From Desulfobacterales bacterium (GTDB taxonomy: Bacteria; Desulfobacterota; Desulfobacteria; Desulfobacterales; 4572-123), in assembly GCA_029939715.1 (NCBI GenBank), contig JAOZSJ010000001.1:1614-65613 (forward strand): DNA of 64,000 bases, in the 5' to 3' direction. Made by a program: the position numbers and the translations under genes. The notes under the pieces were generated by a model. The model was not told the DNA's origin. It did not search any database and worked only from the letters and a program-made list of their open reading frames with translations. Shown piece by piece: positions 37,143 to 43,298 of the stretch (position 1 is its first letter; each line of letters starts with the position of its first letter).

Positions 37143-37652
37143 TCACATCATTTCAAAGCGGCTAATATCAGAATCAACCCCAATTTTCTTATTGAAAACA
37201 GTGATCACTTCAGCCTTTCTCAGCACGGTGCCATCCTGTTTATTGATATATCCATTTTTTACGACTTCAAGAATAACTTCATTTTCCAGGTCAGGGTGTT
37301 CCCGGGTTGCAATAATTTTGCAGTATTCCATTGTTGCTTTATTTTCAGGAAATTCCATCAGAACAATAGATGCAGATTTGAAATGACGAAGTAATTTTCT
37401 ATGAATAGTGAAAATATTCTTGCCCAGCATTTTTGCGGTTTTGTCAAGTTTATCTTTTTTGAATCCAAGGTTTTTTTCTATAATTTCAAAAGCATCTACG
37501 ATATCGAGAAGGTTTAAAAAAGAGTCTTTTTCTTTTTTATAAAAAAACTCTTCTTTTTGGGCAAGGGTCAGTCTCAATTCAGCGATCGTTTGTTGAAATT
37601 CAATGAGTTTTTGCTTTAACAGTTCTTTTTCAGAGGCCATGATTTTTTTCAA
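37143..37652 (-). CDS. divergent GrpE-like nucleotide exchange factor
   Basis: 169 aa. N-terminal coiled coil (ELLKQKLIEFQQTIAELRLTLAQKEE), then LNLLDIVDAFEIIEKNL (GrpE has LLPVLDNLERAL). The C-terminal beta domain VILEVVKNGYINKQDGTVLRKAEVITV parallels the GrpE V.Q.GY....LRPA.V.V block. Called by motif resemblance only. Confidence 0.6.
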   Translation of the reverse strand: MKKIMASEKELLKQKLIEFQQTIAELRLTLAQKEEFFYKKEKDSFLNLLDIVDAFEIIEKNLGFKKDKLDKTAKMLGKNIFTIHRKLLRHFKSASIVLMEFPENKATMEYCKIIATREHPDLENEVILEVVKNGYINKQDGTVLRKAEVITVFNKKIGVDSDISRFEMM

Positions 37653-37935
37653 AGATGGTTAAACATTTCAATTGAGGGGGGTCTGATGTTTCCGGATTAT
37701 CGAGAATTTCTGTTTTTTCAGTTATTTCCCGAATCAACTTTGCTTTTGCATCAGCCAGATCAATAAAATGCAAAAATTCTTGGCAAGCCCTGGAAACAGG
37801 ATCAAGAAGCATTTTCTGCGCCTTGGCAAGCTCTTTGACGGAATATTTTTTTTCACGCATACCAAGAGCCACAGCCAGAATTATTTCCCTGTTCGAAGCG
37901 TATCGGTTTATATTCAAAACCTTAAAAGGGTTCAT
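37630..37935 (-). CDS. J-domain-like protein lacking the HPD motif
   Basis: 101 aa. NPFKVLNINRYASNREIILA parallels J-domain helix I/II (YxxLGVxxxASxxEIkkA), and AKAQKMLLDPVSRACQEF parallels helix III (AYEVLSDxxKRxxYD). The position of the HPD tripeptide reads GMREKKYS. It overlaps the GrpE-like gene by 23 nt. Confidence 0.5.
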   Translation of the reverse strand: MNPFKVLNINRYASNREIILAVALGMREKKYSVKELAKAQKMLLDPVSRACQEFLHFIDLADAKAKLIREITEKTEILDNPETSDPPQLKCLTIFEKNHGL

Positions 37936-37942
37936 CTTTTAT

Positions 37943-40000
37943 TTAATCTCCTAAAAAATGGATTTTGTCTTTAATTGAGTCAATAACAATATGATCCGGG
38001 TCAACGGTCATGCAGGTATTGAGCAGGTTGTGGAGATGATTTTTTTGCATATAATAATCCAGACCGCTGTCGTCGACCTGGTCAATGAGCTGTTCTACAA
38101 ATTCAAAATATTGGTCGCATACTTCCGGATATGCGGATTGCCTGGCAAGCCCGGCTGCTTTATTCAGTTTACTTTTAGCCATGGCATTATAAACAGCATT
38201 AATCTCCAGCCTGATGACTGTTTGCTCCAGGGTATGGACGGCAAGTTCATTGTCCGGATATATTTTAAGTGCCTTTTCAAGGGCAACCTTTATCTGCTTA
38301 CTGGTAATTTTTCTACGATTATATCCGATTATGGCTGTTTTCGTCATTACAGAAGAGAGTGCCTCTGCAATTGAATCAGACCGTCGTTGTTTATAGAGAA
38401 GAGTTAAAATTTTCTCATAACAAATCAGTTGGTCACCATCATATTGTAGAATCTTGTCAGTAAACCGTTTTTCAATGGAAGGTGCGGATTCAAACAGTTT
38501 TGATGTCAGGGCAAAGTATTGAAGATAATTTTTTTCACTGTTTTTCATGGCAACCTGTCCGAACTCAAACTGCACAAGTCTTATGACATAGTCTGTGAAT
38601 GCATCCTTTGAAGCAGTAAATTCTATTGCAGCAAGCGAATTCAAAGCTTTTTTAACATTACCTGTTTTTAATGCATACAGACTTTTGCCGGCCCTGGAAT
38701 AATAACCTCCGGTTTCCAGATAGTGCTCCCGGTTTTTAAAAAAATTTTTATTCTGTTTGATCAAGTCCAAAATGATATCGGAAAGCCCGTTAATCGTTGC
38801 ATATTCAGGCGTACAAACCTGATCAAAATGCAGGCCCTGTTTCCTGGAAATAGCCAGCAGATCCTTGATTAATTTTTTTTCAATTACAAGATAACTTGCG
38901 GCATGACGGGCACTCAGGGAGTCTGGTTGACTATTTATCCGTTGTTCGGCAATACTGATCAATTGATGTTGAACCTTTTCCCGTTTATCGGGAATATCCG
39001 AAAACCGTGCTGATATATCTTTGGAATAGATTGCAGTAAGCCAGAAGGTCATCATCGGTTCCAAAAATTTTACATCTTCCCCGGCCAGATGAAAATAAGT
39101 CTTGGCATTCAAAGCAAGGATGGCCGGATCATTAGTGACCGTCATCTGCAAAAGAAGGTCTGCAATGGCTACAAACTCCTTCTTTTTCCACAAGTTTTCT
39201 ATCAAAGCCAGTCTGTAGTATGAACAAATCTTTTCAAGAATACTGATCTGCTTTGTACTGCTCATGGTATTGGCAATGACAAGAAGATCATCCGCCCTCT
39301 TGTAGACCTCATTGATATCCGGTTCTTTTCCAATGGTGTTATAAAGGTCAAAACAGGCAAGGGATAGAGCCAGGTGCTTCTGCTCAATGAACGTCTTGTC
39401 ATGGGTATCCAGTTTCTTCCACTGTTTCAGCGCTTCATAGTATTTCCCGATCTTTGCAAGGGCAAAACCGTAATAATATATTGCCTGGTCATGCGGCAGA
39501 TCCAGTTTTTGGAACATTGCTGCTGCTTGAGCATATCTTTCGGCCTTTACAAAACTAAAAGCACCTTTTAAAAGGCACTCCGGATGGCCGTTTTCCCCCC
39601 ATGCCTTGAGATATAGCTCGGATGCCTTGAGATAATCATGGGTTGCCTCAGCTTCCCCTGCTTCGGCATCAATATTGTTCCATGTCAACTTATTTTGCAG
39701 CTCTTTGATTTTGGCGGTTAGCCAGGGGGCATTTAATAGTTTTTCCGCCCCTTGAAAACATGAGATCGCTTCAGATAATTTATCGTTTTTTACGGCTTTG
39801 TGACCCTGTTTTACAAGATCTTTGGCTTTGATAGCCCTGGTTTCTTTGCGACAGATTTCAAGTTTTTCCGCAATTTCATTACTGTTGAGTCTTTTTTCTA
39901 CCTTTTTAAATTCTTTTTCAGCAAGCAGAAAGTTACCGGTCTTGAACAGATTTTCGGCCCGCTTCAGAATGGTATCAATCTTTTTCTTTTTTTTAGCCAT
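37943..40000 (-). CDS. large cytoplasmic TPR-like/alpha-helical repeat protein (685 aa)
   Basis: No signal peptide or TM helix. Repeated A/Y/L-spaced helix pairs occur (e.g. AERYAQAAAMFQKL, YYYGFALAKIGKYYEALKQWKKL, GGYYSRAGKSLYALKTGNVKKALNSL). I recognise no catalytic motif. It has a 7-nt gap to the J-like gene and a 4-nt gap from the upstream gene. Confidence 0.6.
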   Translation of the reverse strand: MAKKKKKIDTILKRAENLFKTGNFLLAEKEFKKVEKRLNSNEIAEKLEICRKETRAIKAKDLVKQGHKAVKNDKLSEAISCFQGAEKLLNAPWLTAKIKELQNKLTWNNIDAEAGEAEATHDYLKASELYLKAWGENGHPECLLKGAFSFVKAERYAQAAAMFQKLDLPHDQAIYYYGFALAKIGKYYEALKQWKKLDTHDKTFIEQKHLALSLACFDLYNTIGKEPDINEVYKRADDLLVIANTMSSTKQISILEKICSYYRLALIENLWKKKEFVAIADLLLQMTVTNDPAILALNAKTYFHLAGEDVKFLEPMMTFWLTAIYSKDISARFSDIPDKREKVQHQLISIAEQRINSQPDSLSARHAASYLVIEKKLIKDLLAISRKQGLHFDQVCTPEYATINGLSDIILDLIKQNKNFFKNREHYLETGGYYSRAGKSLYALKTGNVKKALNSLAAIEFTASKDAFTDYVIRLVQFEFGQVAMKNSEKNYLQYFALTSKLFESAPSIEKRFTDKILQYDGDQLICYEKILTLLYKQRRSDSIAEALSSVMTKTAIIGYNRRKITSKQIKVALEKALKIYPDNELAVHTLEQTVIRLEINAVYNAMAKSKLNKAAGLARQSAYPEVCDQYFEFVEQLIDQVDDSGLDYYMQKNHLHNLLNTCMTVDPDHIVIDSIKDKIHFLGD

Positions 40001-40004
40001 TTAT

Positions 40005-40958
40005 TTATTCCAGAAAAACCCCTACCTTCATTCCGGGTTCAAGGGGTGTGTCTTCAACAAGGCAATCCTTCTGATTCAAACAGTATCGTTTCATGATGGC
40101 CTTTCGTGTATCTCCGGGTCGAACCGTATATCTCCAGTAACGCCTGTTTTGTTTTTTGCCTGTTACGGCCTTGTAAACACAGGCAGCCAGTGTTTTATCA
40201 CACAGATAACGAATCGTATCCCTGCTGCTGATATTGTACACCTGAAGATCGGGATTATGTTCCAGCAGTATTGGATAAAAGATTCCCGAGCCATAAAGAT
40301 CATCGGCAATGTCCCACAGGGTATCATCATCCTTTGCGTGGTAAACGGCAAAGCACGGTTTTTCCTTTTCCACTCCGTCTTGAATCTTAAAAGACTCCTT
40401 AATTTCTCCTGTAACAAGTTTAGAAGCCTTTTTTCCCAACACATTTTCAGTCAATCGAATTTCATGCTCTTTTGTCATCTCAACCAGTTCTTCAATACGC
40501 TCTTCCAGATGATTCATCCGCCTTGTGCCTGCCTCCAGAGCAGTCATGATCACTTCTGGATTTTTATTGAGCACCTTTGTCATCCGGACCACGTCAGTGT
40601 CAATTTTTTGTACAGTAGATTCCATGGCGGAAAAACGATGGCCGGCATATCCGAAAAAACAGACAAGCATTACTATAATTATCCCCCCCTGGACAATCGG
40701 ATTCCATGGAATTTTTCTTTTGTAAGCCTTATCGGCACCCGACCACAATTTATCCTGTTCAACTGCTTGTTTGCCGGTTTTGGTGGACAAATCCGGCCGT
40801 AAGTCATTTATAGAGTCAGTCAATGATGCCCGGGGCTGATCCGGCAGGGCGTCTAAAAGCTTAAAGCAGATCAAATCCGAATCGCACTGGGGACAGGTAT
40901 CCCCGTCCCGGGGAATATGCTCAAAATGACAGACAGGGCAGGTTATTCCAGAGCTCAT
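40005..40958 (-). CDS. bitopic membrane protein: N-terminal zinc ribbon, TM helix, coiled coil, C-terminal LysM-like domain(s)
   Basis: 317 aa. Zinc ribbon CPVCHFEHIPRDGDTCPQCDSDL and TM helix IVQGGIIIVMLVCFFGYAG. A coiled coil is followed by AVYHAKDDDTLWDIADDLYGSGIFYPILLEHNPDL (LysM pattern) and a second partial YTVRPGDTRKAIMKRY. Its start abuts the Hsp70 stop with a 0-nt gap. Confidence 0.65.
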   Translation of the reverse strand: MSSGITCPVCHFEHIPRDGDTCPQCDSDLICFKLLDALPDQPRASLTDSINDLRPDLSTKTGKQAVEQDKLWSGADKAYKRKIPWNPIVQGGIIIVMLVCFFGYAGHRFSAMESTVQKIDTDVVRMTKVLNKNPEVIMTALEAGTRRMNHLEERIEELVEMTKEHEIRLTENVLGKKASKLVTGEIKESFKIQDGVEKEKPCFAVYHAKDDDTLWDIADDLYGSGIFYPILLEHNPDLQVYNISSRDTIRYLCDKTLAACVYKAVTGKKQNRRYWRYTVRPGDTRKAIMKRYCLNQKDCLVEDTPLEPGMKVGVFLE

Positions 40959-43298
40959 TTACCGGGTAATACCTTTTTGAATCGTTCCGGTTTCAGAATC
41001 GTATTGCTGAAGCACTTTTTTTACCTCAGGTTGTATTTCGCTAAGAGTTGACTCAACCAACTCATAGTTTTCTTTTAACGTTGCCTCCATAATAGTTGAA
41101 ACGGCATTATAAAATTTAGGCGATCTGGAAGGTTCATGCTCATCACACAGTTCTCCAGCACTGGTAATATCCATGAGAATATTAATTATCGGGAAGCTGT
41201 CAAAGAATGTGTCCAGATCATTATAGGCATCAAGGTTCTCTTCATATGTTCCATCAAGATTCATTTTTTTGAGATGTTTTATCTTTTTCTTCATCAACGA
41301 CTGATTTTTTGACGAAAATGCTTTGGAAAAATCTTGCAGAGCGCTTTGAGCATAATATATTAAAGAATAACAATTCACTCCTTCTTCCGCCAGTCGCTTT
41401 GTCTTATCGATTTTCATTTCCACAAGGTTATAAATAGGTTCTATAATCTCACCGGTCTTTTTATCGATCACACTATGGATATCCTTAATGATGGAAACGA
41501 TTCGGGTTGTCATGTCATCAATGGTATAGGTGCTGTATTCATTTTTATTGGACTCATTGATCATGTCTTCCAGAGCCATAAACAACTTTTCATCAGCCTT
41601 TCCCCTGGATAATGTTTTGGTCAACTCAACCCCGGGCAGCTCTCTCAGGGATGCAGCAACTTCAACAAGATTATTTTCATCAATTTTCAGAGTTACCTCA
41701 ATACTAAGGGGCAGTTCCCTGATCTCCTCGGAGAGATCTCTCCGGTAATCATTAACGTCTTCAGTGTCAATATCCAGCCAGAAGTCACCGATAGACTCAT
41801 ATTTATCATTGACAATGTTAAAAAATTTTATATGCACAAGCTGCTGATCAGAATGAACAAGTTTAAAAACTTCCGTCCGCTCGCAGGGAAGAGGCGTATT
41901 CTTTTCAATAAACAGATATTTGTCTCCATTTTCAAGGACAACATAATAATCATGGGCCGCTGAATGAACAATATCAAAAACGCCCTGATCTATGATATGC
42001 TTTTCCAGATCAAATCCACATTTGCTACAGACAATGTCTGACTGGGAAACCGTGTTTCCACACCCCATGCACTCATAGGTATCGGAAAGCCGATGGCTTA
42101 AAATGGCGGCCCCTTCAGCAATGGCAAGCATGGGCCGCTCATGGACAAGCACTTTATCCGGTCCGAATATATCTTTTACAGCCCTGATAATACATGGAAT
42201 TTTTGAACTTCCACCAACAAGCAGCACATTGTCTATAAGATCCGGTGTAAAATGAATATCATCAAGCAGCTTTCGGGTCAGTTCCATGGCGTTTTTCACC
42301 ACAGGCCGGATAATTTCTTCAAACTGTTTTCTTGTCAAGGCAACATCTACATCCAGAAGGTCACCATCCTGGTCCTTTAAAAGACCCAGAAGTTCAATAT
42401 AAGCTTCGTCCTGATCGCTCAAGTTGATTTTTGCCTGCTCCACAGCAGCCGTCAACTCACCCAAAAAACGATTTTTCACCCCATTTTCCTGATGGTCTAT
42501 CACTTGGGCGATATCCCCAATATCATATTCACGCGCTGTTTCACTGAGCACAAAATCTTCGATTTTCCGGTCGATATCTTCTCCGCCCAGCCACATATTG
42601 CCGCCCTTGCCCTGTTCAATAAACTGACCGCCGCTGATAGTAAGCACAGACAGGTCAAAAGTTCCGCCTCCAAAATCAAATACCATGATTGTTTTGGCTT
42701 CATCATTTTTTACCTGATCAACTCCAAAAGAGATGGCAGCCGCAGTAGGTTCCGGAAGCAGCCGCTGCACTTTCAACCCGGCAAGGGATGCAGCAGTTCT
42801 TGTGGCATGCTTCTGCTTGTCGTTAAAATAGGCGGGCACGGTAATCACTGCATATTCAATCGCATCATGCAGGAAGGCTTCAGCATCCTTGTGCATTTTT
42901 TTAAGGATTTTGGATGAGATTTGTTCAGGGGTATATTCTTTTTCGTGTAAAAGGATGGCAAGGCTGTTCTCGGTCCCCATGGACTGACAGGTTATGGTAT
43001 TAAATTGCCGATGCCCTGATATAATTTTTTGAACTTCCGGGTTGGTAAAGCTTCTTCCCATCAATCGTTTAACTGCTGTCACTGTATTTACCGGATCCTG
43101 CTTTATCCATTCCAGGGCATGCTTTCCAACAATAAATTCCTGTCGTTTGATCAGTCCTACTAATTTTTTTTTCTTAACTGTAAGACATGACGGCGTTATC
43201 AGATCTCCCTCACTATTTTTAATAATTTCGATATGTACTTTTTTAATAGCTGCTGCTGAATTAGTTGTTCCCAAGTCTATTCCGATGGATTTTGGCAT
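40959..43298 (-). CDS. atypical Hsp70-family ATPase (779 aa) with zinc-ribbon insertion and non-canonical C-terminal domain
   Basis: Hsp70 NBD motifs IGIDLGTTNSAAA, VITVPAYFND, VFDFGGGTFDLSVL and LLVGGSSKIP. A CxxC-x10-CxxC ribbon (ECMGCGNTVSQSDIVCSKCG, aa 410-427) follows the NBD. A beta-rich segment and a ~200-aa helical tail come next. The tail is unlike the DnaK lid and has no acidic EEVD-like end. Confidence 0.9.
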   Translation of the reverse strand: MPKSIGIDLGTTNSAAAIKKVHIEIIKNSEGDLITPSCLTVKKKKLVGLIKRQEFIVGKHALEWIKQDPVNTVTAVKRLMGRSFTNPEVQKIISGHRQFNTITCQSMGTENSLAILLHEKEYTPEQISSKILKKMHKDAEAFLHDAIEYAVITVPAYFNDKQKHATRTAASLAGLKVQRLLPEPTAAAISFGVDQVKNDEAKTIMVFDFGGGTFDLSVLTISGGQFIEQGKGGNMWLGGEDIDRKIEDFVLSETAREYDIGDIAQVIDHQENGVKNRFLGELTAAVEQAKINLSDQDEAYIELLGLLKDQDGDLLDVDVALTRKQFEEIIRPVVKNAMELTRKLLDDIHFTPDLIDNVLLVGGSSKIPCIIRAVKDIFGPDKVLVHERPMLAIAEGAAILSHRLSDTYECMGCGNTVSQSDIVCSKCGFDLEKHIIDQGVFDIVHSAAHDYYVVLENGDKYLFIEKNTPLPCERTEVFKLVHSDQQLVHIKFFNIVNDKYESIGDFWLDIDTEDVNDYRRDLSEEIRELPLSIEVTLKIDENNLVEVAASLRELPGVELTKTLSRGKADEKLFMALEDMINESNKNEYSTYTIDDMTTRIVSIIKDIHSVIDKKTGEIIEPIYNLVEMKIDKTKRLAEEGVNCYSLIYYAQSALQDFSKAFSSKNQSLMKKKIKHLKKMNLDGTYEENLDAYNDLDTFFDSFPIINILMDITSAGELCDEHEPSRSPKFYNAVSTIMEATLKENYELVESTLSEIQPEVKKVLQQYDSETGTIQKGITR

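Follow-up and report, generated by a model that had tools for sequence, protein, structure and literature searches.

A conserved zinc-ribbon-type insertion ahead of the interdomain linker of an Hsp70 paralog encoded in a five-gene module of Desulfobacterales

The stretch of Desulfobacterales DNA analyzed here (64,000 nucleotides, hereafter the window) encodes an atypical paralog of the chaperone Hsp70, in which a four-cysteine (Cys4) ribbon lies between the nucleotide-binding domain (NBD) and the hydrophobic interdomain linker leading into the substrate-binding domain (SBD). The sequence comparisons described below reveal that the Cys4 pattern is a genuine site of zinc-ribbon type, predicted to bind a metal and evidently under strong purifying selection, and that it is an insertion added before a linker whose docking in the ATP state is still predicted from the alignments and from a structural model. 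The gene of the paralog opens a module of five translationally coupled genes. The features of the paralog in the window are as follows.

40959..43298, minus strand: Hsp70 paralog gene, 779 amino acids, stop included (open reading frame list, Pfam, homologs)
42084..43298, minus strand: NBD, residues 1-405 (PDB phmmer alignments to the BiP/Hsc70/DnaK NBD end at 400-405)
41976..42083, minus strand: insertion of about 36 residues (406-441), made up of the zinc ribbon, a conserved GFDL motif and helix 431-438 (indel in alignment A2, spacer lengths, model)
42018..42071, minus strand: Cys4 core C410-x2-C413-x10-C424-x2-C427 (translation, alignments, model)
41958..41975, minus strand: hydrophobic interdomain linker V442-F-D-I-V-H447 (conservation, model strand 442-444)
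41601..41957, minus strand: SBD-beta, divergent, residues 448-566 (hhalign, A2 profile against PDB, model strands, Foldseek)
40962..41600, minus strand: enlarged nine-helix lid/C-terminal domain, residues 567-779 (model helices 568-766 with a predicted local distance difference test score, pLDDT, >90; tail conservation in alignment A1)

The open reading frame translates around the ribbon as ...AEGAAILSHRLSDTYE-C410-MG-C413-GNTVSQSDIV-C424-SK-C427-GFDLEKH... (residues 401-450 being SHRLSDTYE-CMGC-GNTVSQSDIV-CSKC-GFDLEKHIIDQGVFDIVHSAAHD). The ribbon at residues 410-427, first pointed out in a preliminary description made from the letters alone, is real and maps exactly to 42018-42071, and its position at the NBD-SBD junction, straight after the last NBD helix, is borne out by DSSP on the model, which assigns that helix to residues 392-404, as well as by the ends of the PDB alignments. 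Pfam gives weak zinc-ribbon matches within residues 407-431, among them Zn_ribbon_3 (PF13248) at 407-430 (E 0.004, 17.1 bits against a cut-off of 27), precomputed PF13248 matches are present on several orthologs, and the NCBIfam model of a rubrerythrin-like domain also matches weakly (E 0.019, far under its cut-off). When the 10 Cys residues of the whole protein were placed at random, a CxxC-x5-25-CxxC pattern arose in 41 of 200,000 trials (about 2e-4). The four Cys are invariant in an alignment of 18 sequences (58-80% identity). When a single genome per species was scanned with alignment A3, the closer one, a relative turned up in 101 species, from which 80 species-level loci were kept; CxxC-x10-CxxC occurs, with no length variation, in all 74 of the Hsp70 open reading frames that could be recovered from them. 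E409, G414, Q419 and F429-D430-L431 in and around the ribbon are conserved as well, whereas the positions internal to the knuckles vary (entropy 2.8-3.3 bits). Since the cysteines and their spacing are invariant while the loops vary, the pattern is under selection and not incidental.

The block carrying the ribbon behaves as an indel within the family, being present in 10 and absent from 8 of the 18 representatives in alignment A2. The spacer in front of the linker measures 43-50 amino acids with the ribbon versus 14-37 without it; among the full-length family members about 10 have the ribbon, and about 35 have at the same site 14-37 residues of unrelated, low-complexity sequence. Relative to DnaK, the net insertion is about 31 residues. 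The short, variable and unstructured spacer of the sister Hsp70s implies a permissive loop at the junction, with the ribbon as an optional plug-in. In a neighbor-joining tree, which is crude and only indicative, the ribbon-bearing proteins form two clusters with ribbon-less lineages between them, the second cluster still conserving the ribbon at 30-40% identity; the ribbon-less P0217, nested in a ribbon cluster, is the sole nested loss in the two clusters, and there is none in the main clade. This pattern suggests repeated gain or loss of the ribbon at one permissive loop.

The preliminary description had further proposed that the ribbon takes the place of the interdomain linker, which is refuted by the conserved linker that follows it and by the domain-docked model. 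In the main clade (72 unique sequences), the linker G-V-[LFV]-D-I-V-H (441-447) has an entropy of 0.1-1.0 bits except at the variable hydrophobic F443, and the motif [hydrophobic]-x-[IMV]-[VM]-H-[ST]-x-x-H-D-Y-Y follows the spacer in ribbon-bearing and ribbon-less members alike. Counted back from SBD strand 1, it stands in the register of 388-DVLLL-392 of DnaK (two-sequence alignment and hhalign/profile matches), its distance to SBD-beta strand 1 being equal to that of VLLLDV in DnaK. The AlphaFold (AF2) model built from 105 sequences, which represents one conformational state only, reached a pLDDT of 89.3 and a predicted template modeling score (pTM) of 0.84, an earlier run with 18 sequences having given a poor NBD (pLDDT 69.6). 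In this model the ribbon (pLDDT 77-83) has short paired strands at 407-409 and 416-418 and is followed by helix 431-438, strand 442-444 and then SBD-beta, with strands at pLDDT of about 90. The best Foldseek matches are the domain-docked, ATP-type Hsp70 structures 6ZMD, 7KZU and 6EOC (target TM-score 0.83-0.84, root-mean-square deviation 3.5-3.8 A over about 575 columns spanning NBD and SBD-beta), versus a TM-score of about 0.64 for undocked ADP or apo Hsp70 structures. Linker conservation, SBD homology and the docked-type model together argue that the NBD-linker-SBD architecture is retained. The preliminary description had itself considered that a linker and SBD might be present and the Cys pattern incidental; the first part of that objection has proved right and the second wrong, the cysteines being conserved among orthologs.

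In other respects the paralog is a complete Hsp70 with a catalytic NBD, linker, SBD-beta and long helical lid. It matches Pfam HSP70 over residues 5-406 with 327 bits (E 2e-97), its NBD matches PDB entries to E 1e-62, and the catalytic residues D8, K77, E183, D208, T213 and D215 are invariant columns in alignments A1 and A5. None of the NCBIfam equivalog cut-offs compared was reached (TIGR02350 for DnaK, 316 versus 822; TIGR01991 for HscA, 278 versus 708; PRK11678, 60 versus 331), and these scores, far under the DnaK and HscA cut-offs, mark the paralog as an unnamed Hsp70. The SBD was missed by single-sequence phmmer against PDB and detected by the family profile alone: hhalign aligns it to E. 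coli DnaK 406-492 (E 7e-5), and the A2 profile matches the SBD and lid of mortalin (E 7e-13, reaching into the lid helices), Ssc1 (3e-12) and the DnaK SBD (about 1e-9). More than 120 full-length homologs were found at 58-100% identity, all in Desulfobacterales-type organisms, and a search with residues 405-779 against 1.84 billion representative proteins matched 114 clusters, so that the family is a small one. The extreme C-terminus (40962-41000 of the window, minus strand), reading ...T-G-x-I-x-K-G/D-I-T-R, is kept family-wide, ribbon-less members included; by analogy with eukaryotic EEVD tails and their TPR co-chaperones, it may be recognized by the TPR-like protein of the operon.

The module consists, in this order, of Hsp70, a zinc-ribbon/transmembrane/LysM membrane protein (hereafter the partner), a TPR-like protein (about 690 amino acids), a J-like protein without an HPD motif, and GrpE.

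40005..40958, minus strand: partner gene, 317 amino acids, with N-terminal zinc ribbon, one transmembrane helix, coiled coil and C-terminal LysM (open reading frame list, Pfam)
40884..40940, minus strand: partner Cys4 ribbon C7-PV-C10-x11-C22-PQ-C25, then conserved D-[AS]-D-L-x-C-F (67 of 69 loci with enough downstream sequence)
40641..40697, minus strand: predicted transmembrane helix of the partner, residues 88-106, IVQGGIIIVMLVCFFGYAG (Kyte-Doolittle maximum 2.09 over 19 residues)
40215..40343, minus strand: LysM (peptidoglycan-binding) domain of the partner, residues 206-248 (Pfam E 1.3e-4, 22.3 bits against a cut-off of 20.9)
37943..40000, minus strand: TPR-like all-helical protein, 685 amino acids (weak TPR_19 and Amuc_1098 matches only; third operon position conserved)
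37630..37935, minus strand: J-like protein, 101 amino acids, without HPD, with C-terminal L-x-x-L-[ST]-I-F-[DE] (Pfam DnaJ)
37143..37652, minus strand: GrpE-like exchange factor, 169 amino acids as listed (Pfam GrpE E 1.2e-8, 35.2 bits, above cut-off)

The ATG of the partner gene comes directly after the TAA stop of the Hsp70 gene, and a partner homolog lies immediately downstream of Hsp70 in nearly all loci. The predicted topology of the partner places its zinc ribbon in the cytoplasm and its coiled coil and LysM domain in the periplasm. Pfam DnaJ matches 19 of 23 members of the J-like family (best E 7e-6), and the HPD motif was found in none of the 56 J-like orthologs searched, its position reading K-K-Y-S or similar. 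The J-like orthologs (L001-L083) share a hydrophobic C-terminal peptide, L-[KE]-[RY]-L-[ST]-I-F-[DE], resembling a tail of Hsp70-client or TPR-binding type. GrpE is the last gene of the cassette in other genomes; in the window, its listed start is a TTG that gives a 23-nucleotide overlap with the end of the J-like gene (37630-37652), with an alternative ATG five codons downstream. The five-gene synteny holds in essentially every locus that is long enough, the flanking genes differing among genomes, and the module is present in about 100 species genomes, mainly of Desulfobacterales, Desulfatiglandales and Desulfobulbales, cable bacteria included. The two divergent ribbon-bearing proteins P0148 and P0190 also stand in modules with TPR, J-like and GrpE proteins, together with a LysM protein in the former and a zinc-ribbon protein with multiple transmembrane helices in the latter. 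The single clear exception to the synteny is a ribbon-bearing orphan Hsp70 gene in L030 (7846-10143), which adjoins dnaE, has none of the four partner genes and lacks the N-terminal GIDLGTTNS phosphate-binding (ATP-binding) motif; it is probably a pseudogene in decay. Some ribbon-less modules carry the J-like domain as a C-terminal fusion to the TPR-like protein (L084 5217-7292, L089 10497-12008), suggesting that the two work as a single unit. In the window, murJ and rpsT border the cassette, within housekeeping surroundings (also lptE and leuS). At L001, L002, L084, L088 and L089, the flanks are of defense-island type, with RAMP/CRISPR genes, a nucleotidyltransferase toxin-antitoxin pair, AAA_14-DUF4143, a STAND-like adenylate cyclase, and a kinase-FHA protein with an M48 peptidase. 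A search of the five module proteins with the PADLOC-DB models gave no significant match, the sole match being a chance-level Csm2 (E 0.0045).

What the ribbon does is best approached from where it sits. Published structures of DnaK-ATP and of DnaK bound to a J-domain place the linker cleft and the J-domain docking face at the base of the NBD. We favor, with confidence a little above even, the reading that the ribbon is a metal-stabilized knob beside the retained linker, offering an extra docking or regulatory surface to a protein of the module. On this proposal linker-based allostery would be left in place, and the rigid knob would project from the NBD base, near the cleft entry of the linker and the J-domain docking face, as expected from the DnaK structures. 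The knob may then dock onto, or be regulated by, the J-like protein, the TPR scaffold or the cytoplasmic tail of the membrane partner, and such docking would tune the timing of linker docking and tie the ATPase cycle to a membrane-anchored complex. The proposal draws on the conservation of the cysteines and their spacing, the indel nature of the ribbon, the retained linker, the docked-type model, the five-gene synteny and the abutting Hsp70 and partner genes; on the loss of the ATP-binding motif by the sole orphan copy without partners; and on the precedent of Hep1/Zim17, in which a Cys4 zinc finger acts on the NBD-linker unit of an Hsp70. Several points weigh against it. Residues on the knuckle surfaces show little conservation, which is somewhat at odds with a specific interface. 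The proteins named as binding partners are candidates, and the metal may be Zn or Fe. No feature of the partner proteins was found to co-vary with the Hsp70 ribbon, the partner ribbon, TPR, J-like and GrpE proteins being the same either way; among the J-like proteins, neither a free-standing versus TPR-fused state nor the C-terminal tail followed a consistent pattern at the seven loci compared.

Instead of a docking surface, the ribbon may be a redox or metal switch, with the Cys4 site occupied by Zn or, as in the rubredoxin-like domain of rubrerythrin, by Fe, so that oxidation would lead to metal loss, unfolding, a longer tether before the linker and altered NBD-SBD coupling. The site is ideal for altering the effective linker length, and the Cys4 zinc center of Hsp33 and the zinc ribbon of Ruc are oxidation-released switches feeding the DnaK system (PMC7448276). 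Most ribbon-bearing hosts are strict anaerobes (Desulfobacterota, Cloacimonadota, Elusimicrobia), although a few carriers are labeled Nitrosomonas or Sandaracinaceae; these are metagenome-assembled bins, as are many of the loci, and some host labels are possibly wrong. The rubrerythrin-like match would fit an Fe site but lies, as mentioned above, far under the NCBIfam cut-off, and no other redox components are found in the module. We regard a switch of this kind as unlikely, albeit worth keeping in mind.

Another possibility is that the ribbon serves as a built-in escort, doing in cis what Hep1/Zim17 does in trans for mitochondrial Hsp70 and shielding an aggregation-prone NBD-linker unit when nucleotide-free. 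Hep1 has a tetracysteine zinc finger, its minimal binding unit is the ATPase domain plus the interdomain linker, and it is reported to be absent from prokaryotes (PMC4890766). As with Hep1/Zim17/Tim15, the zinc module of the paralog directly adjoins the NBD-linker unit, and the linker is more hydrophobic (V-[LFV]-D-I-V) in proteins with the ribbon than in most of those without it. However, Hep1 is a separate protein of the zf-DNL fold with a CxxC-x21-CxxC pattern (PMC4890766), whereas the present ribbon lies in cis with x10 spacing (x11 in the partner) and has no sequence relation to zf-DNL, for which neither the Hsp70 nor the partner gave a Pfam match at E<=0.1. Moreover, the N-terminal ribbon of the partner, universal in the family, would be an equally good candidate for shielding. 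A role as an escort in cis seems doubtful on these grounds.

The arrangement envisaged in the preliminary description, namely that the ribbon replaces the linker, rewires allostery and pairs with the ribbon of the membrane protein to assemble a complex, has likewise become improbable. The neighboring membrane protein does open with a Cys4 ribbon of its own, as had been stated; the two ribbons, both of the form CxxC...CxxC, end in a similar way (C-x-x-C-[GD]-x-D-L), their genes adjoin each other, and 67 of 69 main-clade loci conserve the two ribbons jointly. Apart from the linker, which is conserved and docked in the model as in a canonical Hsp70, the pairing is opposed by the ribbon-less Hsp70 loci L084, L085, L089 and L091, in all of which the partner keeps its ribbon (CPxC-x12-13-C[PF]QC). 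The notion that the partner ribbon is absent where the Hsp70 lacks one was ruled out, since the public starts of the partner gene had been called late and cut off the ribbon (L084 4700-4816, L085 2430-2508, L089 9262-9361, L091 2890-3008), which upstream in-frame translation recovers in four of four loci. The likely start of the partner gene lies just past the Hsp70 stop in L084 and may overlap the 3' end of the Hsp70 gene in L089, both starts being non-ATG. Within the family the partner ribbon is thus universal and the Hsp70 ribbon optional; as the partner ribbon persists without the other, the phyletic data lend no support to ribbon-ribbon assembly, and the existence of ribbon-less modules shows that the core machinery can function with no ribbon on the Hsp70.

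Finally, it is very unlikely that the ribbon is neutral filler, a stable mini-domain that landed by chance in a permissive loop, for although relatives tolerate 14-37 unrelated residues at the junction, knuckle surfaces are variable and the ribbon was apparently gained or lost more than once, the absolute conservation of the four Cys, their spacing, E409 and FDL across 74 species, repeated in the second cluster at 30-40% identity and broken by a nested loss only in P0217 and never in the main clade, speaks for selection.

The Hsp70 and its module are worth comparing with the systems already described. Like canonical DnaK, the paralog combines an NBD carrying the catalytic residues with a hydrophobic linker, SBD-beta and a helical lid, and the neighboring genes include those for its own GrpE-type exchange factor and for a J-related co-chaperone; unlike DnaK, it has the extra Cys4 ribbon before the linker, a very divergent SBD and a lid about twice as long, and the module has a J-like protein without HPD and adds a membrane anchor and a TPR-like protein. 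With generic zinc ribbons (Pfam Zn_ribbon_3, Zn_Ribbon_1 and DZR) the insertion shares two CxxC knuckles, a short beta-hairpin spacer, and the CPxCG and CxxCG-F-x-L signatures, but the window protein scores under the gathering threshold and those families are uninformative on function. To our knowledge, no generic zinc ribbon has been described inside an Hsp70; the arrangement had been called unusual in the preliminary description, and our search of the full-text literature, open-access papers only, found no report of a zinc ribbon within an Hsp70.

The nearest described systems are the DO-GTPase (GAP1-N2) conflict systems, mobile and often membrane-proximal modules that likewise combine a specialized Hsp70 with its own GrpE and J-domain/TPR partners (Kaur, Burroughs, Iyer, Aravind 2020, PMC7159879), in the account of which neither an Hsp70 ribbon nor a LysM partner is mentioned. 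Neither the window cassette nor the 80 related loci examined by synteny contain DO-GTPase, GAP1 or FNIII proteins. The ribbon-less P0171 (L086 1516-3009, 7476-11131) adjoins a DO-GTPase2 gene, Big_2 repeat proteins and a 63-amino-acid J-like protein without HPD; this neighborhood ties the Hsp70 family to those conflict systems, the DO-GTPase2 neighbor being seen at the P0171 locus only.

A looser parallel is the mitochondrial presequence translocase-associated motor (PAM), which also brings together an Hsp70, a GrpE (Mge1), an HPD-less J-like subunit (Pam16), a membrane tether and a zinc-ribbon protein; the J-like protein of the module resembles Pam16 in showing J-domain similarity at the fold level without HPD. 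The likeness to Hep1 and PAM is one of analogy, with no sequence support, and does not imply a role in translocation. One may nevertheless entertain, as a rather remote conjecture, that the cassette is an envelope-anchored bacterial Hsp70 motor on PAM logic, whose pre-linker ribbon would be a Hep1/Zim17-like or redox module gating linker docking. If this were true, the motor would consist of Hsp70, GrpE, an HPD-less J-like subunit, a peptidoglycan tether fixed by LysM and zinc-ribbon modules, and it would couple Hsp70 allostery directly to the redox or metal state of the anaerobic host.

Altogether, what is new here is an Hsp70 paralog with a conserved, predicted metal-binding insertion and a distinctive operon, the anatomy of which is solid, while the function of ribbon and module is what we infer from it. 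Complex bacteria encode many paralogs derived from DnaK to which no function has been assigned, and the 2026 review that says so makes no mention of a ribbon-type insertion (PMC13580251); the present family is a tractable example among them, and it defines a compact, uncharacterized chaperone module found in cable bacteria and in sulfate reducers of environmental importance. The short stretch joining the ATPase domain to the linker is one on which Hsp70 allostery depends, and the conserved, predicted metal site lies exactly there; with the ribbon-less sister proteins as built-in controls, it offers a handle on how access to the linker and the co-chaperone face of an Hsp70 may be tuned.

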